This document shows, one piece after another, positions 8,469 to 50,104 of a stretch of 54,761 nt of DNA (positions within the stretch are counted from its first letter, which is position 1; every line of letters begins with the position of its first letter). The notes beneath the pieces are model-generated. The model saw nothing but the letters and a program-made list of their open reading frames with translations. It was not told the origin of the DNA and did no database searches. The stretch is from an uncultured bacterium (lineage in GTDB: Bacteria; Deinococcota; Deinococci; Deinococcales; Trueperaceae): the NCBI GenBank assembly GCA_964634665.1, contig CAZWJZ010000002.1, forward strand, positions 1-54,761, given 5' to 3'. The translations under genes were made by a program, and so were the position numbers.

Positions 8469-9452
8469 ATGTCTTATTTACTTCGCGGGCTCGCCGCTAA
8501 TGGCAGTATTCGCGTTATTGCTGCAGATACAACGGCTTTGGTAGATGAAGCTCGACAACGGCACAGTACTACACCGTTAGCATCTGCTGCATTAGGTCGC
8601 ACCTTAACAGGTGCCCTTCTACTATCTCATGTGGTACTCAAAAATCATCAAGATAGACTCACCCTTCGCTTACGGGGTGATGGTCCTTTGGGTGGTGTGG
8701 TTGCAGATGCAGGTTTAGATGGCGCTGTAAGAGGCTATGTAAGTAACCCTAACTTAACGCTAGCTAACCGCAAAGATGGCAAGCTTGATGTGGGTAGAGC
8801 TATTGGTCAGGGTGACATAGAAATCATTCGTTCACATGCACCTTACGGTGACCCTTATAGCAGTAGCGTAAAGCTAGTAAGTGGTGAAATTGCTGAAGAC
8901 ATAGCTATGTTCTTAGCGCAATCAGAACAAATAGGCTCAGCTGTCCTTTTAGGTGTCTATGTTGAAGGTCAGCAAGTTAAACAGTCAGGTGGCGTGCTTT
9001 TACAAGCCCTACCAGGCGCAGAAGAAGCAGCCCTAACTTTATTAGAAGCAAACATAAAAGCTTTTGGGCAACTTACTGACGGCATGAGCCGTATGAGCAT
9101 GCTAGAAATACTCAATGAACTCTGCTGGGGTATGGGCTTTGAACTCTTAACAGATGACGCACTAGCCCTAAAGTTTGATTGCCGTTGTAGTGACGAAAAG
9201 GCCTTAGATGCCTTAGCTTACTTCAGCCCTGAAGAACGCCAAGATATGATTAGTCAAGATGGTGGTGCAGAAGTTGTGTGCCACTGGTGTAACGAAAAAC
9301 GTTGGTTAAACCCAGAGCAAATACAAAGCATTTCAAATAACGAAATACGCTGCCCTGACTGCCAAACCTTATGGTACAGAGAAGGTCAAGCCACCATGAT
9401 GAGAGATGACGAACGTTGTTCTTGTGGTCGCTTGGTCATGTTACCCGCTTAG
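8469..9452 (+). CDS. hslO: Hsp33 redox-regulated chaperone with an extra C-terminal Cys4 tail
   Basis: Hsp33 fold sequence with the CRC...CHWC zinc centre. GGAAGGA lies upstream of the ATG at 8469. An extra 39 aa contain CPDC...CSC. Confidence 0.9.
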   Translation: MSYLLRGLAANGSIRVIAADTTALVDEARQRHSTTPLASAALGRTLTGALLLSHVVLKNHQDRLTLRLRGDGPLGGVVADAGLDGAVRGYVSNPNLTLANRKDGKLDVGRAIGQGDIEIIRSHAPYGDPYSSSVKLVSGEIAEDIAMFLAQSEQIGSAVLLGVYVEGQQVKQSGGVLLQALPGAEEAALTLLEANIKAFGQLTDGMSRMSMLEILNELCWGMGFELLTDDALALKFDCRCSDEKALDALAYFSPEERQDMISQDGGAEVVCHWCNEKRWLNPEQIQSISNNEIRCPDCQTLWYREGQATMMRDDERCSCGRLVMLPA

Positions 9453-9471
9453 GTAAGATAAGCTTAAGTTG

Positions 9472-9503
9472 AAAGGCTGAGAACTAGATTCTCAGCCTTT
9501 TTT
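9472..9503 (+). terminator. Intrinsic terminator of hslO
   Basis: GGCTGAGAA / TTCTCAGCC stem followed by TTTTTT. Confidence 0.75.
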
Positions 9504-9531
9504 AGTAGTTCAATCAATTAAACAATCTTAA

Positions 9532-9559
9532 AGACGTACGTCTAACTTGACGTACGTTA
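9532..9559. promoter_or_regulatory. Two ACGTACGT-core palindromes; candidate operators
   Basis: AGACGTACGTCT (9532-9543) is a perfect 12-bp palindrome. TGACGTACGTTA (9548-9559) lies 16 bp centre to centre from it and overlaps the -35. Confidence 0.4.
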
Positions 9560-9576
9560 GATTAAACGTGCATAAT
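9547..9576 (+). promoter_or_regulatory. Promoter TTGACG-18-CATAAT of the NTPase cassette
   Basis: The -10 ends 7 nt before the ATG at 9584 and there is no SD, implying a leaderless mRNA. Confidence 0.5.
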
Positions 9577-9583
9577 GGTTTAT

Positions 9584-10759
9584 ATGAAATCAAACCCTGG
9601 TGGGCAAGTAGACCCACAAAACTTAATAGGTCGCGACCAACTCATAAAAGAAATATGGGACACACTCGAGCAGCAAAGCGTAGTCATGACAGCAGAACGT
9701 CGTATTGGTAAAACAAGCATTATGCAAAAAATGCAAGCAGAACCAAAAGAAAAATGGATACCCATATATCAAGACTTAGAGAAATACAGTTCAGCACAAG
9801 AATTTGCACAATCAGTTTATGAAATTCTAAAAACCTACCAAAACTTAAGTAAAACAGCTGAAAATTACTTACAAAACCTACGCCAAGCACTGGCGGGTTT
9901 CAAGTTTGGCGACATAGAAATACCTGAAGCAAAAGATATTCCGTGGCAAAAGCTTTTAACAAGCTCAATTACAGACTTAGTAACAGACCCAGACTGGAAT
10001 AAGTACAAACTTGTCTTCTTGTGGGATGAAATACCCTATATGCTCTCAAACATAAAAAACAAAGAAGGCGAAGAAGTTGCTAAACAAATACTCGACATCC
10101 TTCGCTCACTACGCCAAGAACAAAAAAACTTTCGCATAGTCATGACAGGCTCAATAGGCCTACACCACGTCATAATTGACCTAAAAGAAAAAGGCTACAG
10201 CACAGCACCAATAAATGACATGTATACAATAGAAGTTAACCCACTACATGAAAGATATGCCAAAGAGCTAGCAAAAAAATTAATAACAGGAGAAAACATA
10301 ACAATAGAGGGAGAAGTTCAAGAAGAAGTCATAAGCACATTAGTTGAACAAACTGACGCCTTTCCCTACTACATACACCACATCATAAAAACGCTAAAAA
10401 CAGCAACAAACCCTATAACAAAAGAAACCGTAGAAGAAGTAGTGAAACAACAACTAACAAACTCAGATGACCCATGGCAACTAAGACACTTCGAAGAACG
10501 CCTACCCACCTACTACGAAGGTGAAGACAAAATAGCTAAACTCATATTAGATGAACTTGCCGTTCAAGACAGCCCACAATCAGTCAAAGATATGCAAAAA
10601 AGCATAACAAGCCAAACAGCATTAAAAGACCTAGAACAACTACGCAAACTCTTAAGACTTATGGCGCAAGACCACTACCTAAACAAAAACACCGACAATA
10701 AATACAGCTTTCGCTTCTCACTCATAAAACGCTGGTGGAAACTCGAAAGAGACCTCTAA
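9584..10759 (+). CDS. AAA+/Arch_ATPase-like P-loop NTPase with a C-terminal winged-helix-like domain
   Basis: Walker A TAERRIGKTS, Walker B LVFLWDEIP, sensor IVMTGS. An alternative in-frame ATG at 9575 lies inside the -10 hexamer. Confidence 0.7.
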   Translation: MKSNPGGQVDPQNLIGRDQLIKEIWDTLEQQSVVMTAERRIGKTSIMQKMQAEPKEKWIPIYQDLEKYSSAQEFAQSVYEILKTYQNLSKTAENYLQNLRQALAGFKFGDIEIPEAKDIPWQKLLTSSITDLVTDPDWNKYKLVFLWDEIPYMLSNIKNKEGEEVAKQILDILRSLRQEQKNFRIVMTGSIGLHHVIIDLKEKGYSTAPINDMYTIEVNPLHERYAKELAKKLITGENITIEGEVQEEVISTLVEQTDAFPYYIHHIIKTLKTATNPITKETVEEVVKQQLTNSDDPWQLRHFEERLPTYYEGEDKIAKLILDELAVQDSPQSVKDMQKSITSQTALKDLEQLRKLLRLMAQDHYLNKNTDNKYSFRFSLIKRWWKLERDL

Positions 10760-12913
10760 ATGACCACCGAACCCCCAAAATACCTATCTGTCTTCACACC
10801 CAGCCAAACCAACCCAGAAGACCTAGAAGCCATATTTGTACAAAGACAAGACTACCTAAAAGACGCCATAGAACGCATAAAAGAAAGCGCAACCACAGGC
10901 AACAAACACCACCAACTCATAGTAGGCCAACGTGGCTCAGGCAAAACCAACCTAGTCACCCTACTCGTATACAGACTCGAGCAAGACCAAACACTAAAAG
11001 AGCAGTTACAAATAGCATGGCTAAATGAAGATGAAACCAGCGTAAAATTCTTAGACATCCTCTTAAGAATCTACCAAGCACTAAACAAACGCTACCCCAA
11101 GTACTACCCACAAAACACGCTAGAAGAAGCCTACGAAAAAACAGAAAAACAAGCACAAGACTACCTTGCTACAAGCATAGCAAGCAGCCTAAACCAAAAC
11201 AAAAAAACCCTACTCATAATCATAGAAAACCTAGATGCAGTCTTTGAAAGCATAGGTGACCAAGGCCAAAAACAACTACGAGCCTACATACAAGAAAACC
11301 CACACTTCAGCATTTTTGCCACTGCACAAAAACTCATAGATAACTTAACAAACCGCAAAGACCCCTTCTTTGGCTTCTTTCAAACAGAACACCTACAACC
11401 CCTAAACGAACAAGAAGCCACCCAACTCATAAGCAACATAGCAGACCTACAACACAAACCCAAGGTAACAGCATTCTTAAAAACACCCAAAGGCCAAGCA
11501 CGCATAAAAGCACTACACCACCTATCAGGCGGCAACCACCGCATGTACATAGTACTCTCACAATTCATAAATCAAGACAGTATAGATGCACTCGTACCAC
11601 CTTTTCTAAAAATGGTAGACGAACTCACCCCCTACTACCAAGAACGGCTAAGATGGCTACCCCCCCAACAACGCAAAATAATAGAACAACTAAGCAACAG
11701 CCGAACCACCATGACCGTAACCCAACTAGCCAAACGCCTATTTGCAAGCAACCAAACAACCTCAAAACAACTACAAGAACTACGCAACAAAGGCTACGTG
11801 CAATCACACAAAGACGGGCGTGAATCACACTATGAAATAAGTGAACCCCTCATGCGCATATGCACCGAAGTAAAAGAAAACCAAAGAAACGAACCCCTAG
11901 CTATACTCATAGACTTTATAAGAGCATGGTACGACAGCCAAGACCTAAACGAACGCCTGAAAAATAAAGCTATTTCAACAACAGCTAAATACTATTTAGA
12001 AGCAGCACTTGAAAAAAGCATGTCTTTAGAAAGGAAAATTAACAAACAACTAACCCTAACTGACAAGAGCTTAGCCAAAACACTTAACTCTTATGATACG
12101 AAGCAAAGTGAGGTAGAGGCTTTTGACGAAAAGATAGCTGATTTGACCCAAGTGATTGAGTTGAAAGATGCACCTGTTGAGCAAGTAGCTATTGCACTTT
12201 TGTATCGTGGTGTTAGTTATGGTCAGCTGGGTGAAACGGATAAAGAGATAGCTGATTACACTCAAGTGATTGAGTTGAAAGATGCACCTGTTGAGCAAGT
12301 AGCTATTGCACTTGTTGGTCGTGGTATAGGCTTTTTTGGTAAAAAAGAATATGTTTTGGCAAGTCAAGATTTAAGAGCAATTATTTTAAATTACACTTCT
12401 CATTATGAGCAAGTTCAACTTGCATATATGTGCTTGGCTGAACTAGAGCTTATACAGATGCATTGGACAGAAGCGTTACAATGCATTACTGAAGGGTTGA
12501 AAGTAATGCTTGATGACAATGATTCAAGCCGCTACAACTCTCAAGATATCATTGGCGCTTTGTTTACAACGACTCAAGCTACACAAGAGCGCACAGAGCG
12601 TATTACTGAAATGCTTCAAATTTACAAGAACCATGAGCAGGCGCTTGCTTCTTTGGGGTCAGGTCTGGTCGAGCATTTGGGTTCTTTATTTCAAGCAGAT
12701 GAATTACCTTTTAAAGATAATCTAGAGTCTTGGTTAGTTGCTTGGCAAGCAGCAAGTAAAGATATTGAAGGTTTAAGTGTTGCTATGCGCATTTTTGAAG
12801 TGGGTGTAGAGTTCTTGAAGTCTAAAGGTAAGCATGAAGGGGTTTTGTATACGTTGGTAGAGACTGAACGTAGTATTTTGAGGCAGGCTTTAGGGTTAGA
12901 TGAAGCTTCTTAA
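10760..12913 (+). CDS. ORC/Cdc6- or STAND-like P-loop NTPase with a winged HTH and C-terminal TPR-like repeats
   Basis: Walker A VGQRGSGKTNL, Walker B LLIIIENLD, wHTH MTVTQLAKRLFASNQTTSKQLQELRNKGYVQSHKDGRESHYEIS, and a repeated helical C-terminus. The start abuts the upstream stop (TAAATG). Confidence 0.7.
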   Translation: MTTEPPKYLSVFTPSQTNPEDLEAIFVQRQDYLKDAIERIKESATTGNKHHQLIVGQRGSGKTNLVTLLVYRLEQDQTLKEQLQIAWLNEDETSVKFLDILLRIYQALNKRYPKYYPQNTLEEAYEKTEKQAQDYLATSIASSLNQNKKTLLIIIENLDAVFESIGDQGQKQLRAYIQENPHFSIFATAQKLIDNLTNRKDPFFGFFQTEHLQPLNEQEATQLISNIADLQHKPKVTAFLKTPKGQARIKALHHLSGGNHRMYIVLSQFINQDSIDALVPPFLKMVDELTPYYQERLRWLPPQQRKIIEQLSNSRTTMTVTQLAKRLFASNQTTSKQLQELRNKGYVQSHKDGRESHYEISEPLMRICTEVKENQRNEPLAILIDFIRAWYDSQDLNERLKNKAISTTAKYYLEAALEKSMSLERKINKQLTLTDKSLAKTLNSYDTKQSEVEAFDEKIADLTQVIELKDAPVEQVAIALLYRGVSYGQLGETDKEIADYTQVIELKDAPVEQVAIALVGRGIGFFGKKEYVLASQDLRAIILNYTSHYEQVQLAYMCLAELELIQMHWTEALQCITEGLKVMLDDNDSSRYNSQDIIGALFTTTQATQERTERITEMLQIYKNHEQALASLGSGLVEHLGSLFQADELPFKDNLESWLVAWQAASKDIEGLSVAMRIFEVGVEFLKSKGKHEGVLYTLVETERSILRQALGLDEAS
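12132..12312 (+). repeat. 114-bp (38-codon) tandem duplication inside the NTPase-TPR gene
   Basis: AGATAGCTGATT..CAAGTGATTGAGTTGAAAGATGCACCTGTTGAGCAAGTAGCTATTGCACTT occurs at 12132 and again at 12246 with 3 mismatches in about 68 nt. Confidence 0.85.
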
Positions 12914-39980: not shown

Positions 39981-41240
39981 TTAAGTAACAACAACGCTCG
40001 CCTTAGCGTATTTTTTATAAAGCTTAGTTTGCATGATTTCTTCTATACGATTTACTGCCGTATAAATGTCACTAAATGAGGTGTAGAGCGGAGCTACGCC
40101 CAGACGAATATTATCAGGCGGACGAAAGTCGGGAATAATATTTTTGTCTTTAATCATGGCTAAATCAATGCCAAGCCCTTGCGGATGCCCAAAAGAAACA
40201 TGTGAACCACGCCATTGCGCTTCGCTGGGTGTTTTTAATTTAAAACCATACTGAGCTAGTTTCTCTTCATAAAGCTTTATGAGGAAAGTAGTCTGCTTTA
40301 TGCTTTTTTCCCGAATGGCTTTCATACCAACCTCAATCAGAAGGTCAATACCGGGCTCCATAAGCTCTAAAGAAGCAACGGTGGGTGTACCTGTTAAAAA
40401 ACTTTGCAAGCTGTTATCAGCCTCATAACTCAAGGCAAAATCAAAAAGGTTTTTCTTGCCCATCCAACCCGGAATGGGGTTTATAAGTTTATCTTGCAGA
40501 TCTTCACGAATATAGATAAAGGCAGGTGCACCCGGACCACCATTAAGATACTTATAAGTACAGCCAATCGCTAAATCTGCATTGGCTTTATTTAAATCAA
40601 TATCAACAGAACCAACTGAGTGACTTAAATCCCACAAGGCGAGCGCACCCACACTATGCGCAGCTGCAGTTAAAGCTTGCATGTCATAAGTGTAGCCACT
40701 CTTAAAAACGGTATGCGTTAGGCTAAGCAATGATGTACTTTCATTTAAACTTGCCTTGATTTTTTCAACAGGCGCATAAATGCCATCTTCAGAACTAACA
40801 ATTTGCATGTCATGATTTTTATCTAAAATATCAATAGCACCCTGCATGACATAAAGATCAGAAGGAAAATTAAGATCATCCGTCACAATGCCTGTACGCT
40901 TTGTTTGATGCCTAAGGGCAGCAACAACCAACTTAAATAAATTAATGCTGGTTGAGTCTGCCACAATAACCTCATGAGGTTTCGCACCAATGAGCTGAGC
41001 AATCTTTGCGCCAATACGTTTAGGCGCTTCAAACCAACCCTCATTCCAACTGCGAATTAACCTGTCCGCCCATTGCTGTTGAATGAGCGTATCAGCCTTT
41101 GCAAGCGTAGCCTTAGGAAGACGACCCAGAGAATTACCATCTAGATAAATAAGATCATCATCAGGAATAACAAAATGGTTTTTATAAGCTGCTAGTGAAT
41201 CATTAGCATCTTGCTCTTTAGCGTAGTCACTGCTCATCAT
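39981..41240 (-). CDS. kynU: Kynureninase
   Basis: YLDGNSLG start and overall class V aminotransferase-like kynureninase sequence, 419 aa. Confidence 0.88.
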   Translation of the reverse strand: MMSSDYAKEQDANDSLAAYKNHFVIPDDDLIYLDGNSLGRLPKATLAKADTLIQQQWADRLIRSWNEGWFEAPKRIGAKIAQLIGAKPHEVIVADSTSINLFKLVVAALRHQTKRTGIVTDDLNFPSDLYVMQGAIDILDKNHDMQIVSSEDGIYAPVEKIKASLNESTSLLSLTHTVFKSGYTYDMQALTAAAHSVGALALWDLSHSVGSVDIDLNKANADLAIGCTYKYLNGGPGAPAFIYIREDLQDKLINPIPGWMGKKNLFDFALSYEADNSLQSFLTGTPTVASLELMEPGIDLLIEVGMKAIREKSIKQTTFLIKLYEEKLAQYGFKLKTPSEAQWRGSHVSFGHPQGLGIDLAMIKDKNIIPDFRPPDNIRLGVAPLYTSFSDIYTAVNRIEEIMQTKLYKKYAKASVVVT

Positions 41241-41248
41241 TATTTCAC

Positions 41249-42043
41249 CTATAACTTAGAACGAATTTCCCACAAATCAGGAAAAAGGGGCTTCAGGGTA
41301 GCCTGCAAATAGTTTACGCCACTCGAGCCACCCGTTCCTAATTTATGACCAATGGTTCTTTCAACCATTTTGACGTGCCTGTAACGCCACTCTTGCATGC
41401 CTTCATCAAAGTCAAGCAGATTCTCACAAAGCGCAGCCAGCTGCGGATTTGTGTTGTAAATAGTTATAAGGGCAGTTTGCATAGCTTCATTAGGGCTTAA
41501 CGCCACCGTGAAATCTTCTCTTGCTTCTAACGCGTAATTGTGCGCTTGCAGCAAAGTAATAAACGCATCCCAAAGACTAGCTTCTTTAAAGCGCTGCTCA
41601 AGCTTTAAGCGACCCTCACTACCCTCAGGATGATGATTCAAAAGCGCCTCACGTTTATAAGCAAGTAAAAACTCGAGCTCTCTAAACTGGTAAGATTGAA
41701 AGCCACTACTACTACCAAGCCGATCTCTAAAACTATTAAACTCTAAGGGGGTCATGGTTTCTAAAATATCCACTTGTGAGACAATGGTTTTTAAGATGCT
41801 CAGCATGCGCTTTAAGGTATGCATTGACCTTGTTACATCTTGCTTATTAAAGAGCGTTACAAGGTAATCGGTTTCATGTAGTAGTTGCTTGAACCATAAT
41901 TCGTAAACCTGATGAATAGTTATAAATAAGAGTTCATCATGTTCGTCTGATTCGCAATTCTGCAGGCTTAAGAGCTCATCTACAGCGAGGTAGCTGCTGT
42001 AGGTAATGGTTTTGCTACTGTCAAGATAAGTGTTTTTTGGCAT
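41249..42043 (-). CDS. kynA: Tryptophan 2,3-dioxygenase
   Basis: TYSSYLAVDELLSLQ and HDELLFITIHQVYELWFKQLLHE motifs. Confidence 0.9.
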   Translation of the reverse strand: MPKNTYLDSSKTITYSSYLAVDELLSLQNCESDEHDELLFITIHQVYELWFKQLLHETDYLVTLFNKQDVTRSMHTLKRMLSILKTIVSQVDILETMTPLEFNSFRDRLGSSSGFQSYQFRELEFLLAYKREALLNHHPEGSEGRLKLEQRFKEASLWDAFITLLQAHNYALEAREDFTVALSPNEAMQTALITIYNTNPQLAALCENLLDFDEGMQEWRYRHVKMVERTIGHKLGTGGSSGVNYLQATLKPLFPDLWEIRSKL

Positions 42044-43111: not shown

Positions 43112-43939
43112 CTAACTAAACTCGAGTATGGCTTTAATCTGCTTTTCAACAACTCTCCACTGTGCTGTTGAAGCTACAACCAATTCAAAATGCCCTGAAT
43201 TATCTAAGCTAATAAGTTCAATCGTTTCAGCTCGAGCTTTTGCTTGCTTAACGTAGTTTTCAACATAGTCATGCGGTACCGTGTCATCTTGCCTGCCGTG
43301 TATAAAGACTTGCTTGCAATTTAAGGGTCCAAGCTGTGCAGGTGAGCCCTGCTGGTATCTTTTGGCTTGCTCACTTGGCGTGCCACCCATAAGCTGTACA
43401 GGGGCAGCGTCATCACAAATTTCTCTACGCACAGCCTCAGCTAAGTCAGGTATGCCTGCTAGGGAAATAAAGCCGGTTAACTTTAGGGGCATTTCACTGT
43501 AAAGCTCACTGTCTGCACTTAATTTTTCTCTAGCAGCTAACCAGTGAACCAAATGCCCACCGGCTGAGTGACCCACAGCAACAACACGCGAGGCATCAAG
43601 TGAGTACTCTTGAGCAATCGTTCTTATAAAATCGGCAGCTTTAGCAAGATCTAAAAAAGTTTCAGGATAGCCGCCGCCATTACCAATACGCCTGTACTCA
43701 ATATTAATAACAGCTAGCCCTAAGTCACTAAGCGCCTTTGCCGCTTGACCAAAATAATCTAAGCTAACGCGTGAGCGCCAGCAGCCCCCATGCACCAAAA
43801 GTACAATAGGGGCAGACGTTTTGCTTTCTGGTAAGTAAAGGTCAAGAAATTGACTTTCATTAGAACCATAAACCAATCGAGTTGAAGCGGATGCTTTAGC
43901 TAAGGCAAGTAAATCTTGAACGCTCATCATAGTAAGCAC
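43112..43939 (-). CDS. Alpha/beta hydrolase, candidate kynurenine (aryl)formamidase
   Basis: HGGCW oxyanion motif, GHSAGGHL nucleophile elbow, and kyn cluster context. The start may be the ATG at 43930. Confidence 0.65.
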   Translation of the reverse strand: MLTMMSVQDLLALAKASASTRLVYGSNESQFLDLYLPESKTSAPIVLLVHGGCWRSRVSLDYFGQAAKALSDLGLAVINIEYRRIGNGGGYPETFLDLAKAADFIRTIAQEYSLDASRVVAVGHSAGGHLVHWLAAREKLSADSELYSEMPLKLTGFISLAGIPDLAEAVRREICDDAAPVQLMGGTPSEQAKRYQQGSPAQLGPLNCKQVFIHGRQDDTVPHDYVENYVKQAKARAETIELISLDNSGHFELVVASTAQWRVVEKQIKAILEFS

Positions 43940-44717: not shown

Positions 44718-45971
44718 CTATGAATACCGCAACTCAAGACCCTTATTAGACTGCTCTAATTGCGCATTACAACCCAAGCGACGCAAAGACACAAACAGCA
44801 TTAAAGAAAACAAAGGTTCAGGCTTCAACCAACGCAAGCCCGTAACACCCAAATAAACTCGAGCTGCTCTTTTTAAGCGTAGTAAACGCCACTCGTAAAT
44901 AGGTTTAGATGCACTTTCTTCAGCTAATAAAGCCTGTACTTTTAAACCATCAAAAATATAATAAAGAGCCAAAATGAAACTTGGAAGCATCCAAACACAA
45001 TCAACAACAAGTTCACGAAAAAACACCATAAAACGATCTAAGCGAGGGCTACCCCGCTCGAGTACAATCTGTGACTCCCATATTAAGCGTTCTTGCTGAT
45101 TGGGTGCTTCTAAACTAAGGATTTGCTTAAAGGGGTTACAACGCTTCAAAAACAGCTTGAGTGTTTCAGTGCAATTAAGCTCTTGTGCTCTAGCAAACAA
45201 ATCATGCTGCGTGACACCCTTAGCTATAAGTAAGTCAAAATCAAGGTAATCTTGCGCTTTTAAAACCCAGTTATCAGCTGACCAACTACGGCTCATAACT
45301 AGCCCTACCAGTACCGAATCAACAAGGTTAGGTGTTAATACTTGCACACCCTCCCAGTCACGCAGTTCAGCATGCTGCCACACTGATTTCGTAATGGCAG
45401 ACTGAACACCCTGACGGGCATTTACTACATGCGTAACTTGAGCATGCACATCAAGCCGAATAGGGTAAGTCTCATGCTCCAAATGCAAAACCTCATGACT
45501 CACATGGGTTGCTGATGCTTTACTGGTTTCAACACCTGCCCGCCAACTTACCCGCCAACCCAAAGACTCAGCTTGCAACACCATAGCGTCAACATCAGCA
45601 GCATTAACCAGCAAATCAACATCACCATAACGACGCTTTGCAGCCACATCATAAAGAAACTCAGCTAAGAAAAAGCCTTTAAATACCAGCACATCAACAT
45701 AAGCATCTGCCCAAAGTTCAAACAAAGGTTTCAAACTCGCTTTTACCTTAAGATGATTCATGCTGGCAAACACAAAGTCATTATGCAAAGCACTACGCTT
45801 AAACTCGACTTCAGGCAGCACCGCATAAGCATAAGCAGCTAACTTATGCCGCCTTAAAACATCAGCATGAGGCGCAGCCAAAACATCCCCCAATAAGAAA
45901 AGCTCGAGCTGCTGTAAGTCTTCGGTGGTGTTGCTATGTTTTTGGGCACGTGGATGACGTAATGTAAGCAT
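44718..45971 (-). CDS. Nucleotidyltransferase, NTP_transf_5-like (Pol-beta superfamily)
   Basis: FKGFFLAEFLY..RRYGDVDLLV catalytic motif, 417 aa, own AAGGGA RBS. Confidence 0.7.
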   Translation of the reverse strand: MLTLRHPRAQKHSNTTEDLQQLELFLLGDVLAAPHADVLRRHKLAAYAYAVLPEVEFKRSALHNDFVFASMNHLKVKASLKPLFELWADAYVDVLVFKGFFLAEFLYDVAAKRRYGDVDLLVNAADVDAMVLQAESLGWRVSWRAGVETSKASATHVSHEVLHLEHETYPIRLDVHAQVTHVVNARQGVQSAITKSVWQHAELRDWEGVQVLTPNLVDSVLVGLVMSRSWSADNWVLKAQDYLDFDLLIAKGVTQHDLFARAQELNCTETLKLFLKRCNPFKQILSLEAPNQQERLIWESQIVLERGSPRLDRFMVFFRELVVDCVWMLPSFILALYYIFDGLKVQALLAEESASKPIYEWRLLRLKRAARVYLGVTGLRWLKPEPLFSLMLFVSLRRLGCNAQLEQSNKGLELRYS

Positions 45972-46031
45972 AGTGAGTCCCTTAAGTTGTTTTTATTAGT
46001 ATGTACTTAATGAGTATTTTTTTCAGTGACC

Positions 46032-46065
46032 AAAAAGAGCATCCCCAGTTGAGGATGCTCTTTTT
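46032..46065. terminator. Bidirectional intrinsic terminator ending the rSAM operon
   Basis: AAAAA-GAGCATCC-ccagttga-GGATGCTC-TTTTT. Confidence 0.7.
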
Positions 46066-46090
46066 GTAATAAATTCTAAATAGATGCTTA

Positions 46091-47107
46091 CTATACTTTT
46101 GTAACTTGAGCGTTTTCTAAATAATCAACCCAAGGGTTTTCAGGGAATTCTTTTAACCAGTCTAGTTTTTTGAAGTATTTACTGCAGTACCAGCAGGGGC
46201 TTTTGTCGTCTTCGTTGACACCATTTGCAAAGTGGGCCTTTTTGATTCGTTTTAGTTTCTCGTTGCCTGCTACGAGTTTTAAGAAGCCTTCTGTGAAACT
46301 CATGCTTTCTAGGTTGCCTACTATGTCGTCTTGGCTGGCTATGGGGCCGTGGCTACTTAAGTGACAGCATTTGGTTATGTTGCCTTGTGAGTCTATGTTG
46401 ACTTCCATCATGTTTAGCGGTGCGCAAGGAAAGAGTTGCTCTGTGCTAAAGCCTGGTGCCATGGCTATGGGGAGTGTTTTGGCGTAGTCTGCTTGTAGTT
46501 GCCAGATTTGTGCTTCTAGGTCTTTGCGTTCTGTTAGGCTTAAATCCCAGCCGTTGGCGGTTGTTATGGGGGAGTGCATAAGGTGCCCGAAGCGCAGGCC
46601 GCTGCTACCTAAACTTTGTATGAGTTCAGCGAGGTCTTTTAGTTCATGTTGATTGTGTTTGGTTATGACCATGTTGTTTGTAAAAGGAATGTTTAGGTCT
46701 TTGGCTAGCTTCATGGCATTTATGACTTGCTTATAAGAGTGCTTGCCGCGTAGTGCGCCGTGGGTTTCTTGACTGGCACCGTCTAGGCTGAAGGTTATTT
46801 GCTCTAAGTTAGCTAGGTAAGGCAAGATTTTTTTGTGGGAGCTTGCAAAGTTATAGCCGTTGGTAACAAAGCTAAAGCGGTAGGTGTGGGCTTTGACTTT
46901 GGCGAGAAGTTCATCGAAGTACTTGTAAACGGTGGGGTCGCCCCCTGTGAAGGTAAGGTGTTCAAAGCCTAGGCGTTTTGCTTGATTAAAGACGTTTTCT
47001 AGTAGCTCTAAACTTAAGTCATCATTGCCACCATGACGCCCTGAGAAGCAGTGCTGGCAGGCTAAGTTGCAGCGATTTGTGAGTTCTATGACAATGCGTT
47101 TACTCAT
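46091..47107 (-). CDS. Radical SAM enzyme with a SPASM-like Cys-rich C-terminal domain
   Basis: CNLACQHC (CX3CX2C) at residues 12-19, GGDP, and C-terminal CAPL..CCHLS..CWYC cysteines. Confidence 0.88.
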   Translation of the reverse strand: MSKRIVIELTNRCNLACQHCFSGRHGGNDDLSLELLENVFNQAKRLGFEHLTFTGGDPTVYKYFDELLAKVKAHTYRFSFVTNGYNFASSHKKILPYLANLEQITFSLDGASQETHGALRGKHSYKQVINAMKLAKDLNIPFTNNMVITKHNQHELKDLAELIQSLGSSGLRFGHLMHSPITTANGWDLSLTERKDLEAQIWQLQADYAKTLPIAMAPGFSTEQLFPCAPLNMMEVNIDSQGNITKCCHLSSHGPIASQDDIVGNLESMSFTEGFLKLVAGNEKLKRIKKAHFANGVNEDDKSPCWYCSKYFKKLDWLKEFPENPWVDYLENAQVTKV

Positions 47108-48107
47108 CTAGTTTGGCCTCTACTAAATTGCTTACAAGGGCAGGCTTTTCTAAAGCGTCAGGTGCTAACAGTAATTCATAAGCTGTGGCTTGTTGAAGCA
47201 TTTGACTTAAAACTTGTAGTTGAGCTTTCGAGGTATTTGCATCTGTCATAATGCCAGCACTTTGTTGCGCGAGTAAAATGAGGGCTTGAGTTGCGTTTAT
47301 TTCAGCTAAGCTTGTTTTTGTGCTTAAACCTAAACGTGGAAATAAAATTATGTTAGGCGTGCAAGTAGCAGTAAATCCGGCGGCAAACTCAGGGTTTAAA
47401 TTAATGACTTTTTTGCCTTTAGGATCGTCAAACTCTAAACTTGCATCTTTATCATTAAAAGCTTGAAACACGTCAGGCATAACTGAGAAGCCCTTACGAA
47501 AGGCTAACGCTTCAACTTCATTTTCTGAGGCTTTAAGTAAGACAGCATCATCAGATAAAAACTGCCAAGCTGAATTAATTAAATTAAGCGTAGTTGTGGT
47601 TTTACCAGAACCACTCGAGCCAACTACAAGTAAGCCTGTGTTGTGTTTTTTGAGTCCGCAGGCATGTAAACCATAGAGACCTTGGGGTCTTAGTAGCATG
47701 AGTATGCTTAGCATGATGAATTCGCGTTGCGCGTAGAGGCTTTCATGCCAGAAGTAATCTGATAAGTAAGCAGTTGCGTGTAGTGTTTGGGTATCTAGGT
47801 TGAGCTGTGATGCGCCGCAGCTTAAGTAAAAGCCTGTTGTTGTTTTTAGGACTTCTAGACTGCCAGCACTGTAAACAAGGTCACCACTTGGTTTTGAAAA
47901 AGGTTTATCTAGTAGTTTAATGTCTGAATTTGCTTGAGCGTAATCACATTCAGTTAAGACAAGCACACGGTTTAATAAGTAGTCAAGTTTGCTTAAACTA
48001 GCGTAATCTCGACCTGAAAAACGCAGGTTCACGGTGTCTATTTGGTAGAAGCGTTGGTAGTCTTGCGCGCTTGTTAAGGTATCAAGAGGTGTTTCCCAGA
48101 CCATCAT
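47100..48107 (-). CDS. HPr kinase/phosphorylase C-terminal-domain-like P-loop protein
   Basis: LLVVGSSGSGKTTT followed by FLSDDAV. 8-nt overlap (ATGAGTAA) with the rSAM gene. Confidence 0.75.
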   Translation of the reverse strand: MMVWETPLDTLTSAQDYQRFYQIDTVNLRFSGRDYASLSKLDYLLNRVLVLTECDYAQANSDIKLLDKPFSKPSGDLVYSAGSLEVLKTTTGFYLSCGASQLNLDTQTLHATAYLSDYFWHESLYAQREFIMLSILMLLRPQGLYGLHACGLKKHNTGLLVVGSSGSGKTTTTLNLINSAWQFLSDDAVLLKASENEVEALAFRKGFSVMPDVFQAFNDKDASLEFDDPKGKKVINLNPEFAAGFTATCTPNIILFPRLGLSTKTSLAEINATQALILLAQQSAGIMTDANTSKAQLQVLSQMLQQATAYELLLAPDALEKPALVSNLVEAKLDE

Positions 48108-48722
48108 TTACTCCGCAAAGAACCAAGCTGCGTCACTAGGAACAGCTTTGCTAGATAACTCAACGGTTTGAAAGATACCTGACTTATCAACCAGTGAAAA
48201 CAAAGCTGTATTCCAACCCTGAGTTAACTGAAGGTCATAACGAAACACACCTGGAACACCGCCTAAAGGACAGTCACCAGAAATGCTTGAAGCAGAATTA
48301 GCATAAATGTACTGCACGTAATAATCACCTACTTGGCTTAAGCCATTCTGCATAACTGCTTCAGAAGAAGCCAGTGCAACCAAACCCGCTGCATCTTCAC
48401 CGTCAACAGAGACAGAAAAGGCAGAAAACTGATTACTACGCAAAGCACCATTAGTCATAGTCAGCGCGTCACAAGCAGCTAAAGGCTCGAGTAGGTCATT
48501 AGTAATGCTGGTAGATAAATTAACTTCAAAAATACCCGTGTTTGTAAGTTGACCTGACGCAATAACGCCTTCTTTATCTGCGTAAAACATGGCATTAAGC
48601 GCTGCGGAACCCGCAGTCCAATTTTTGAGTTCAGCCTGAATAGTGTACTGAGGTGATACCGAAGTGCTACAACTACTTAAAAAAATACAAAATAGAGCAG
48701 CTAAGAAAGAGTAACGAAACAT
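48108..48722 (-). CDS. Lipoprotein of unknown function
   Basis: Lipobox FLSSC in MFRYSFLAALFCIFLSSCSTS, AGGAG RBS, and a stop codon directly abutting the next start. Confidence 0.7.
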   Translation of the reverse strand: MFRYSFLAALFCIFLSSCSTSVSPQYTIQAELKNWTAGSAALNAMFYADKEGVIASGQLTNTGIFEVNLSTSITNDLLEPLAACDALTMTNGALRSNQFSAFSVSVDGEDAAGLVALASSEAVMQNGLSQVGDYYVQYIYANSASSISGDCPLGGVPGVFRYDLQLTQGWNTALFSLVDKSGIFQTVELSSKAVPSDAAWFFAE

Positions 48723-48921
48723 GCTTTGCTCCTAAAAGAAGAGAGATGGGAGTCTTAATCTTCTAACTTCAGTGTAGGTAAAGACACAGCCTTTTTAAGG
48801 TACGCTCATCACAAGAAAAAGCCTTAGGAAGTCTGATCGTACTCTGCTAGGTCAGAATTATAAAGCTCTACGACATTTATAATTCAGCTTAGTAAAAAGC
48901 AGCAAACAGTAAAGCTAAAAG

Positions 48922-50013
48922 CTAGTCTAAAGAGATAAAGCGCTCGAGTACTCGAGTGTTTGCTAAGTTGCTTTGAAATACGTCTGCTAGGTTGGCTACG
49001 GTTTGAACTTGCATGTCGGTATTTTGATTAGGGTAGTCTTCATTTTGCCATGTTTCATTCCACCATGAGAAGCCTTTAAGGCTATCCCAGCGGTTAGATA
49101 AGATGGCTTTTAGAGCGTCATCTGCCCAGATGGCAGGGTCCCCTAGAGGGTTAGCTGCGGGCGCACCAAACTCTAAAACAAAGACAGGTTTAGTGTTACT
49201 TAAAGCATTAAATCTAGGAATAGCAGTGTCTAGCGCTTCGGTAAAATCATCCCAGTAATCATCAAAAGGTGCTTGAGCTGCATACAAAGAAACACCAAGC
49301 CAGTCCACAACATCATCACCAGGGTAATAAGCTTCAAAGGTATTCCACGGTTCTTCAGGGAAGTCATAGGCATTTACGTGAAACACCCACGTAATATTGC
49401 TTGCCCCTTGAGCCTTTATGGTACTAACAATATGACGATAACTTTGTTTAAATAAGTCTGTATCCTGCTGATTCTGAGCACCACTCCAAGAGAACCAATC
49501 CCCATTCATTTCAGCTCCCCACTCGACAATAAGTGGAGATTTAAAAGCTGCCGCGGCTTTGCCCCATGCTTCTAAATCGCTATCAAAAACACCATTTACA
49601 ATATTCTCTAAGCTAAAAACAGTCTCCTCAGTATAAATTTCAGCAGAGGAGCGCAACATAAGGCGAATAAAAGGAACAGAACCGCTATCCTTAATCCAAG
49701 ATACGGTTTCTAAAGGAAAACTACGATTTTGATACCAGTTATGAGAGAAATAAACCCAAGCTGCTTTACGACCCACCGCAGTTTCATAAGACACTAAGCC
49801 TTCAAGACTAATGTCATCTTCTTCACCACTGACCCCACCAGGGTAAACCCCATGATAATACTGACCCTGCTCAGGTAGCGCCAAGCCAAAAGATTCATTA
49901 GCCGTTACATTTGCAGCGTTGCAAGCAAGCAAACAAACAAGAAGCAAAACAAAACTCAAATAACCCTTAAAAACAGTGAAGAAAACCCCTTGTAAACTCG
50001 AGTGTCTAGTCAT
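48922..50013 (-). CDS. Secreted glycoside hydrolase, GH26-like
   Basis: Signal/anchor sequence and EWGAEMNGDWFSWSG, resembling the GH26 HE-NG-WFWW motif. Confidence 0.65.
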   Translation of the reverse strand: MTRHSSLQGVFFTVFKGYLSFVLLLVCLLACNAANVTANESFGLALPEQGQYYHGVYPGGVSGEEDDISLEGLVSYETAVGRKAAWVYFSHNWYQNRSFPLETVSWIKDSGSVPFIRLMLRSSAEIYTEETVFSLENIVNGVFDSDLEAWGKAAAAFKSPLIVEWGAEMNGDWFSWSGAQNQQDTDLFKQSYRHIVSTIKAQGASNITWVFHVNAYDFPEEPWNTFEAYYPGDDVVDWLGVSLYAAQAPFDDYWDDFTEALDTAIPRFNALSNTKPVFVLEFGAPAANPLGDPAIWADDALKAILSNRWDSLKGFSWWNETWQNEDYPNQNTDMQVQTVANLADVFQSNLANTRVLERFISLD

Positions 50014-50064
50014 GAGATGTTTGCTTTAAGCAGAGTCAGGTTTCTATGGGCATAGTGCATAACT

Positions 50065-50097
50065 AAAAACTCGAGCTTAGCTAACTTAGCTAAGCTC
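50065..50097 (-). terminator. Intrinsic terminator of glyQS
   Basis: GAGCTTAGCTAA-c-TTAGCTAAGCTC perfect inverted repeat, then TTTTT on the minus strand. Confidence 0.7.
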
Positions 50098-50104
50098 TTG
50101 AATT

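Follow-up and report, generated by a model that had tools for sequence, protein, structure and literature searches.

Comparison with described systems

Lasso peptide clusters that carry a kinase or a nucleotidyltransferase, such as those of paeninodin (PadeK) and pseudomycoidin (PsmK and PsmN), are among the closest described counterparts of the system considered here. HprK homologues transfer a phosphate to the C-terminal Ser of lasso precursors, and in pseudomycoidin an NTP_transf-type enzyme adds hexoses to this phosphate (PMC8498205). We have analysed a four-gene block in a 54,761-nt stretch of DNA from an uncultured Trueperaceae bacterium (assembly GCA_964634665.1, contig CAZWJZ010000002.1, positions 1 to 54,761), referred to below as the window. 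The block encodes a lipoprotein, an HprK-like P-loop protein of the ScmC family, a radical S-adenosylmethionine (SAM) enzyme and a nucleotidyltransferase-fold protein of the NTP_transf_5 family. These four genes are probably the half with the tailoring enzymes in a widespread cluster type, uncharacterised in its biochemistry, for ribosomally synthesised peptides that are modified after translation (RiPPs), acting on a precursor that is encoded elsewhere together with PqqD and B2. Relatives of the locus share with the lasso clusters the leader motif, the PqqD/B1 and B2 proteins, the HprK-like kinase and NTP_transf_5, while the window itself keeps the kinase-like and NTP_transf_5 genes without precursor, B1 or B2. 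The differences from lasso systems are also clear. There is no cyclase, the core QTFFG(S/T)FSP offers neither Asp nor Glu as a ring acceptor, the kinase is invariably accompanied by a radical SAM enzyme, and a lipoprotein and large surface proteins occur in addition. None of the features that define a lasso cluster (a precursor with leader, B1 together with B2, a cyclase together with a core Asp/Glu at position 7–9) was found in the window.

The same types of component are known from systems defined by comparative genomics. SynChlorMet (ScmC, ScmD/PqqD, ScmE and ScmF; TIGR04248–04251), which was defined in silico and whose precursor is unknown, unites an HprK-like protein of ScmC type with PqqD and a radical SAM enzyme that resembles PqqE. 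However, the window proteins stay far below its equivalog cut-offs (16.4 against 125 for ScmC, 82.4 against 400 for ScmE and 68.1 against 400 for ScmF), and only the broader family PF27840 is matched. Moreover, the present system has one radical SAM enzyme instead of two, a five-Cys C-terminal domain in that enzyme, B2, NTP_transf_5 and the lipoprotein in addition, and a precursor that can be identified. HPr-rel-A (kinase A, TIGR04352; PqqD, TIGR04353) and GeoRSP (radical SAM/SPASM, TIGR04303; PqqD, TIGR04302; kinase B, TIGR04355) are likewise built from such components, but scores of 47.0 against 200 for TIGR04352, 33.5 against 200 for TIGR04355 and a further 63.5 against 400 place the window proteins in a different clade; both of these systems are also uncharacterised. 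The peptide maturases SkfB, PqqE and YydG act on short ribosomal peptides, depend on leader binding by a RiPP recognition element (RRE) and have auxiliary Fe-S domains. The window enzyme resembles them in the radical SAM core only (residues 2–180), and it has its own Cys pattern and no fused RRE.

Judged by its genes, the complete system is thus like a lasso-type RiPP pathway with a radical SAM enzyme in place of the cyclase, and is not a member of the lasso, SynChlorMet, GeoRSP or HPr-rel-A systems. Cassettes of PqqD, HprK-like protein and radical SAM enzyme are already known from comparative genomics. The link to the lasso-type B2 and leader, the conserved core QTFFG(S/T)FSP and a copy without precursor appear to be new within the literature covered here, which did not extend to radical SAM and HprK-related work: our searches found nothing on SynChlorMet, only unrelated work for ScmC and only lasso papers for PqqD combined with HPr kinase. 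At the level of the family, one conserved cyclase-less cluster joins four things that are usually treated separately, namely recognition by lasso-type leader, B1 and B2, a radical SAM maturase, a kinase of HprK type and NTP_transf_5. The nine-residue core of the cluster is sharply conserved, and the cluster spans Deinococcota, Planctomycetota, Chloroflexota and Acidobacteriota, and the long-orphan ScmC, HprK-related and PqqD cassettes gain a concrete candidate substrate.

The cassette and its precursors in related genomes

We compared the window with 15 other distinct loci whose radical SAM protein is at least 42% identical to that of the window. In all 15 the ScmC gene lies directly upstream of the radical SAM gene, usually overlapping it, and this includes loci from Planctomycetota (L065) and Chloroflexota (L066). 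The triad of lipoprotein, kinase and radical SAM genes, whose recurrence in other genomes had been put forward as a test of the preliminary description, occurs in ten distinct loci, the window's included. The order lipoprotein–ScmC–radical SAM, with or without NTP_transf_5 behind it, is seen in L001/L009, L005, L006, L008, L012/L063, L064, L067 and L068. In the Deinococcota-like clade (Truepera, Trueperaceae metagenome-assembled genomes (MAGs) and lower-GC relatives of 42–48% GC) a lipoprotein of about 205 aa precedes the ScmC–radical SAM pair and NTP_transf_5 follows it. The nearest named relatives are Trueperaceae MAGs.

The full clusters add PqqD (PF05402), a Transglut_core3 protein (PF13471), which is the lasso-type B2 leader peptidase (a transglutaminase-like cysteine protease), and one to three precursor genes of 46–60 aa. 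B2 of the relatives reaches 76.6 bits (cut-off 33) with the NCBIfam model lasso_biosyn_B2 (NF033537), and the best match of their PqqD is the lasso PqqD model (63 bits). An Asn-synthetase-like cyclase was not found within 8–10 kb on either side in L001, L005, L063, L064, L065, L066 and L068. Split layouts of the cassette exist elsewhere: L010 and L011 have the order precursor–ScmC–radical SAM–PqqD, and neither B2 nor NTP_transf_5 is encoded within 10 kb.

Precursor genes adjoin the enzyme genes in 13 of the 15 loci. By their sequence the small open reading frames (ORFs) are unmistakably precursors, as illustrated by MKELNNHNDEQLEYKKPELKEHGSVEEVTLQTFFGTFSPQPPMKNG in L005 and ...YTKPELKEHGSAAEVTLQTFFGSFSP in L001. 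The leader Y..P.L...G.....T. is common to all of them and fits the lasso motif YxxPxLx3Gx5Tx; accordingly the precursors pass the NCBIfam model lasso_leader_L3 (20.5–21.9 bits, cut-off 19). The cores among these 13 loci include QTFFG[ST]FSP, GFFGAFSP and PFGTFSP, with precursor ends such as ...TGFFGAFSP (Novipirellula, L065), ...GGFFGSFSP (Caldilineaceae, L066) and ...PRDPFGTFSP (L011). At position 7–9 none of the cores offers an acidic residue as ring acceptor. Most lack acidic residues altogether; the exception are the ...FSPPASD variants, which have a C-terminal Asp at core position 13. A scan of metagenomes for the core pattern gave one real precursor (L061), which adjoins an NTP_transf_5 gene. 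Another match to the pattern, in L062, lies inside a large ORF and was rejected as a chance hit.

These findings support the proposal, made in the preliminary description, that the block is a RiPP-type tailoring cassette, since precursor, PqqD and B2 stand beside the same enzymes in relatives. That description left two candidates for the substrate, the lipoprotein and a peptide encoded elsewhere. The second is favoured by our results. The argument from a missing precursor to the lipoprotein is not supported, as the relatives carry precursor, PqqD and B2 immediately upstream of the lipoprotein gene, and the cassette family has an obvious leader-bearing precursor.

In the complete clusters each precursor gene is located directly 3' of a gene for a large secreted protein of LRR, DUF11 (CLIPPER) or SpaA-like type (L063, 631–7198; L005, 5675–8247; L064, 12128–14288; L068, 5268–8277), and in one Trueperaceae genome three of these pairs stand in tandem. 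A conserved secreted protein of 176 aa follows NTP_transf_5 in L005, L067 and L068, and was not found in the window. At the position where lasso-type B2 is found elsewhere, the Caldilineaceae locus L066 encodes a Peptidase_S24/S26-like protein (9324–9830), which may be an alternative leader peptidase.

At the loci of distant ScmC homologues, from Chloroflexota and Acidobacteriota, ScmC is still accompanied by PqqD and a precursor; NTP_transf_5 is variable, the cores are different and often there is no radical SAM gene. In Chloroflexota MAGs (L022, L025, L027, L030, L031 and L034–L036) triads of PqqD, precursor and ScmC-like genes without radical SAM gene lie at about 9000–10700 of each 20-kb locus. 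Their precursors have the leader Y(E/Q)xPxLxKHQRLQKVTL and varying cores, e.g. GTVSNG..DWLLPGN and ATTPPPLNFPNALPGQ. In MAGs of Acidobacteriota/Thermoanaerobaculia precursors of only 24 aa, MKKTYRKPSLRRLGLLRQITRFSF, are encoded at L015 8795–8869, L018 7469–7543 and L019 8967–9041, next to PqqD, B2, ScmC-like and NTP_transf_5 genes; the implied core comprises only 3–4 residues, (R)FSF.

A breakpoint and purifying selection in the window

The absence of a precursor, previously noted for the spacers between the genes, holds for every frame of the 54.7-kb window: regular expressions and tblastn in six frames revealed no leader motif, FFGxFSP-type core, PqqD or B2 there. Custom hidden Markov models (HMMs) built from the relatives matched only the four known genes in the window and no precursor, PqqD or B2. 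A lasso cyclase (Asn-synthetase homologue) was not found in the window either. Alignment of the DNA indicates where the upstream half is missing. A block of about 110 nt that precedes the lipoprotein start is conserved with L006 (2064–2179), L005 (8290–8411), L067 (450–563) and L068 (8306–8419), and farther upstream the window is unrelated. In the full clusters L005, L067 and L068 this block begins right after the precursor terminator hairpin. Because homology to the full clusters stops at this point, the window locus is 5'-truncated or split at the precursor terminator, and it appears from the alignments to have lost or relocated the half with precursor, PqqD, B2 and surface protein. The block contains invariant TGTGATG-NN-CGTACC and CTA.ACTG elements, though the lipoproteins of the compared loci are only about 50% identical. 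It is probably a promoter or a regulator site. A structured RNA in this leader was considered and rejected, as Rfam gave no match and a consensus fold was not supported.

The locus L006 (GCA_964352605.1), a 90%-identical relative, has the same four-gene block between the genes for glycyl-tRNA synthetase and a glyoxalase. The GH26 gene upstream of the block in the window and the AT-rich hairpin at 48855–48885 had been noted as preceding the operon. Both are missing from L006, where the lipoprotein leader comes almost immediately after the glycyl-tRNA synthetase gene (window 48836–50104 compared), and therefore they constitute an indel unrelated to the cassette. The hairpin itself is weak (−8.2 kcal/mol, z = −2.7).

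The ratio of nonsynonymous to synonymous substitution rates (dN/dS) between the window and L006 is 0.056 for the radical SAM gene, 0.16 for the ScmC-like gene and 0.21 for both the lipoprotein and the NTP_transf_5 gene, as compared to 0.055–0.14 for neighbouring housekeeping genes. All four genes are under purifying selection. The two lineages have diverged by dS of about 0.2–0.3 and the upstream half is missing in both, thus the low dN/dS values indicate that selection continued after this half was lost from the locus. The most likely substrate is therefore a precursor elsewhere in the genome and not the lipoprotein.

Properties of the four proteins

The radical SAM enzyme matches PF04055 (4.8e-30, 105 bits against a cut-off of 29.5) and has the CX3CX2C motif, CNLACQHC, at residues 13–20, which places it in the superfamily. 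It starts at this Cys motif and has no N-terminal RRE. Apart from Cys 13, 17 and 20, the alignment shows invariant Cys residues at C-terminal positions 228, 247, 248, 305 and 308, i.e. the pattern C-x18-CC...C-x2-C. BtrN has the same Cys spacing. In comparison with the seven-Cys SPASM motif (CX9-15GX4C...CX2CX5CX3C...C), CX13GX4C and CX2C are present, but CX5CX3C is missing, and PF13186 (SPASM) gave no match at E ≤ 0.1. The SPASM label initially given to this enzyme was thus too strong, and the five Cys suggest a twitch-like or abridged SPASM domain, with probably one auxiliary cluster besides the radical SAM cluster. More than 569 homologues of the enzyme were found. Every NCBIfam match is three- to sixfold below its cut-off: prokaryotic viperin 73 against 180 bits, MoaA 84 against 284 and tungsten-cofactor maturase 87 against 380, and the PqqE, MftC and NirJ equivalogs likewise stay below (73 against 381, 78 against 265). 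Among solved structures, the peptide maturases SkfB (1e-17), PqqE and YydG are nearest to it in sequence (1e-17 to 1e-11). Since the enzyme belongs to no characterised family and the triad recurs in other genomes, the preliminary description has withstood the two tests that were proposed to refute it.

The kinase-like protein is assigned to PF27840 (ScmC) in the precomputed Pfam call. It scores below threshold with PF07475 (29.2 bits against a gathering score of 33.3) and with its best NCBIfam match, HprK_rel_A (47 bits against 200). Invariant in 21 homologues are H147, the P-loop G-S-G-K-T-T (GSSGSGKTT in the window) and D185-D186. The AlphaFold2 model is of high confidence (pLDDT 91.7), and the best Foldseek match is phosphoenolpyruvate carboxykinase (PEPCK; E 1.6e-10), followed by HprK/P (E 1e-6). 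A P-loop of the form GxSGxGK[ST], an upstream His, the Asp-Asp motif and a PEPCK-like fold together identify an HprK/P-type P-loop kinase fold, and the protein is a probable peptide Ser/Thr kinase. Its N-domain is PEPCK-like in the model and not a winged-helix RRE. A word-seeded search found 59 homologues, many of them sharing contigs with homologues of the radical SAM enzyme.

The NTP_transf_5 protein matches PF14907 (1.2e-19, 71.3 bits against a gathering threshold of 31.2), and GDVDLLV corresponds to the G-D-x-D motif. Orthologues are located 3' of the radical SAM or precursor gene in L001, L005, L006, L008, L063, L064, L066, L067 and L068; the copy in L068 is 53% identical and that of L063 overlaps the radical SAM gene by 4 nt. 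Thus the gene, earlier linked to the operon by proximity, is a conserved member of the cassette, and in the window it is a transcription unit of its own. The C-terminal 140 aa were considered as a B2-like remnant, which was rejected as there is no Pfam match in this region.

The lipoprotein has a signal peptide and the lipobox LSSC, and two further Cys residues, C84 and C151, are invariant in the alignment; it is therefore extracytoplasmic. Its conserved C-terminal motif is AxW(F/L/V)(F/Y/L), in which W is invariant. Homologues are encoded immediately upstream of the ScmC-like gene in L001 (36% identity, E 3e-38), L003 (frameshifted), L005, L006, L008, L012/L063, L064, L067 and L068, so within the Deinococcota-like clade the lipoprotein is a conserved member of the cassette. 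No lipoprotein gene accompanies the same ScmC–radical SAM pair in L010, L011, L013, L065 and L066. HMM scans gave no match to any Pfam or NCBIfam family. Nevertheless the protein is not the orphan it was thought to be, as a profile search found its domain in 396 representative protein clusters, frequently as part of large surface proteins and in some of these as repeats next to DUF11, TIG, Ig and beta-propeller domains. The AlphaFold2 model is all-beta and too poor for a fold search (pLDDT 44.5). In the reduced locus L003 (6383–6992; GCA_024642575.1) a frameshift splits the lipoprotein gene into ORFs of 130 and 77 aa, which reflects either a pseudogene or an assembly error.

Proposed pathway and alternative explanations

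We infer the following sequence of events for a complete system. PqqD would bind the leader and present the short core QTFFG(S/T)FSP. The radical SAM enzyme would then make a C–H-activated crosslink in this aromatic-rich core, most likely involving Phe residues. The ScmC/HprK-like protein may phosphorylate the conserved Ser/Thr of G-x-F-(S/T)-P, as HprK homologues do on lasso precursors, and NTP_transf_5 could elaborate the phosphate with a sugar or a nucleotide, similarly to pseudomycoidin. B2 would remove the leader, cleaving after the residue next to the conserved leader Thr. LanI-type lipoproteins are a model for an immunity partner, and by analogy the lipoprotein may serve as an extracytoplasmic binding or immunity/self-protection partner. 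In the window, these enzymes would depend on a precursor supplied in trans.

Several points weigh against such a pathway in the window. Precursor, PqqD and B2 were found neither in the 54.7-kb window nor in L006, the closest relative, whose contig measures 10.9 kb, and for this reason the substrate in trans is assumed and was not seen. Neither the radical SAM enzyme nor the ScmC-like protein has a built-in RRE, so leader recognition would fail without a PqqD somewhere in the genome. No exporter was seen in any locus, and no product has been characterised for any member of this cluster type. The frameshifted lipoprotein gene of the reduced locus L003 hints that reduced copies can decay. It is conceivable, then, that the window carries a decaying remnant: the precursor/PqqD/B2 half was deleted and the four genes are left without substrate, on the way to becoming pseudogenes, or the lipoprotein alone has kept a use. 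A breakpoint exactly at the precursor terminator and the lack of all recognition parts from both the window and L006 agree with this, as does L003. Decay of this kind is hard to reconcile with four intact ORFs whose overlaps and abutments are preserved, and with dN/dS values of 0.06–0.21, like those of the housekeeping neighbours, for a pair of lineages in neither of which the upstream half is present. We regard it as unlikely, but worth keeping in mind.

A different possibility is that the radical SAM enzyme, kinase and nucleotidyltransferase modify a protein before export, in the leaderless manner of anaerobic sulfatase-maturating enzymes (anSME) and sulfatases, the target being the lipoprotein or another surface protein. 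The tight coupling of the lipoprotein gene to the kinase gene in the window and its relatives would be explained in this way, and so would the pairing of each precursor gene with a large secreted LRR/DUF11 protein in the relatives and the lack of an RRE in the window. However, the family has genuine leader-bearing precursors with a conserved core, and the lipoprotein has no FFGxFSP-like motif, its C-terminus being conserved around a different motif with the invariant W. Five loci have the enzyme pair and no lipoprotein, and the lipoprotein domain is a common surface module that also occurs outside such cassettes. We consider modification of a protein substrate improbable. It is equally doubtful that the block, having no leader, RRE or protease, represents a RiPP-derived protein-level maturation by crosslinks or phospho-adducts of the lipoprotein or of a surface protein with the same beta domain. 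Finally, the enzymes could serve the synthesis or modification of a nucleotide or a small molecule, in the way of viperin-like defence or cofactor maturation; a kinase together with a nucleotidyltransferase is a nucleotide-like pairing, and the radical SAM core matches pVip of PADLOC with 77 bits, in addition to viperin (73), MoaA (84) and the tungsten-cofactor maturase (87). These matches cover the shared radical SAM core only and are far below the cut-offs (73 against 180, 87 against 380), while the other three proteins have no PADLOC matches. The enzyme has a five-Cys auxiliary domain, which to our knowledge viperins lack, and the genes of the relatives are flanked by PqqD, B2 and precursors. 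A non-peptide role is thus very improbable, and an assignment to a defence system was rejected, as only generic radical SAM-core matches to pVip were obtained.

If the four genes are indeed the tailoring half of a RiPP-type cluster, the window demonstrates that the enzyme half can persist under selection apart from its precursor. Genome-mining tools that need a precursor in cis would miss or mis-score loci like this one.

Gene arrangement and other features of the window

The ORFs, their junctions and the strong terminator hairpin are all located where the preliminary description had placed them (Table 1), and the motifs CNLACQHC, GSSGSGKTTT, LSDD and GDVDLLV were recovered from the window proteins. 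The first three genes are coupled in translation: the stop codon TAA of the lipoprotein gene directly abuts the ATG of the kinase gene (GAGTAAATGATGG), and the kinase and radical SAM genes overlap by 8 nt (ATGAGTAA; GATGAGTAA as read directly at the junction). The hairpin between the radical SAM and NTP_transf_5 genes (AAAAAGAGCAUCC...GGAUGCUCUUUUU) has a fold energy of −25.7 kcal/mol (z = −7.6), which none of 200 shuffled sequences equalled, and it is also kept in L006. It is an intrinsic terminator that, judged by its sequence, is bidirectional.

Table 1. Positions of the four-gene block and adjacent features in the window
Feature	Position	Strand	Basis
NTP_transf_5 nucleotidyltransferase-fold gene, 417 aa	44718–45971	minus	ORF at this position
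Intrinsic terminator hairpin (predicted), G+C-rich palindrome with A and T runs on both sides	~46032–46065	none	fold energy
Radical SAM gene	46091–47107	minus	ORF at this position
ScmC-family HprK-like P-loop gene	47100–48107	minus	ORF at this position
Lipoprotein gene, 204 aa, first of the block	48108–48722	minus	ORF at this position
Conserved non-coding leader/promoter region of the block (putative)	48723–48835	minus	DNA alignment with L006, L005, L067 and L068
GH26-like gene	48922–50013	minus	partial GH26 match, 1.7e-11

Directly downstream of the cassette, at 39981–42043 and 43112–43939, are genes of the kynurenine pathway (kynureninase and tryptophan 2,3-dioxygenase) and a BD-FAE esterase gene, and this synteny is shared with L006. 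On the plus strand at 9575–12913 are two adjoining genes, one encoding an ATPase_2 domain and the other AAA_16 with a MarR-like HTH. The composition at 10–12 kb of the window is unusual, with a GC skew of −0.26 to −0.35 and an AT skew of +0.44, and the gene pair may be an acquired STAND-type module.

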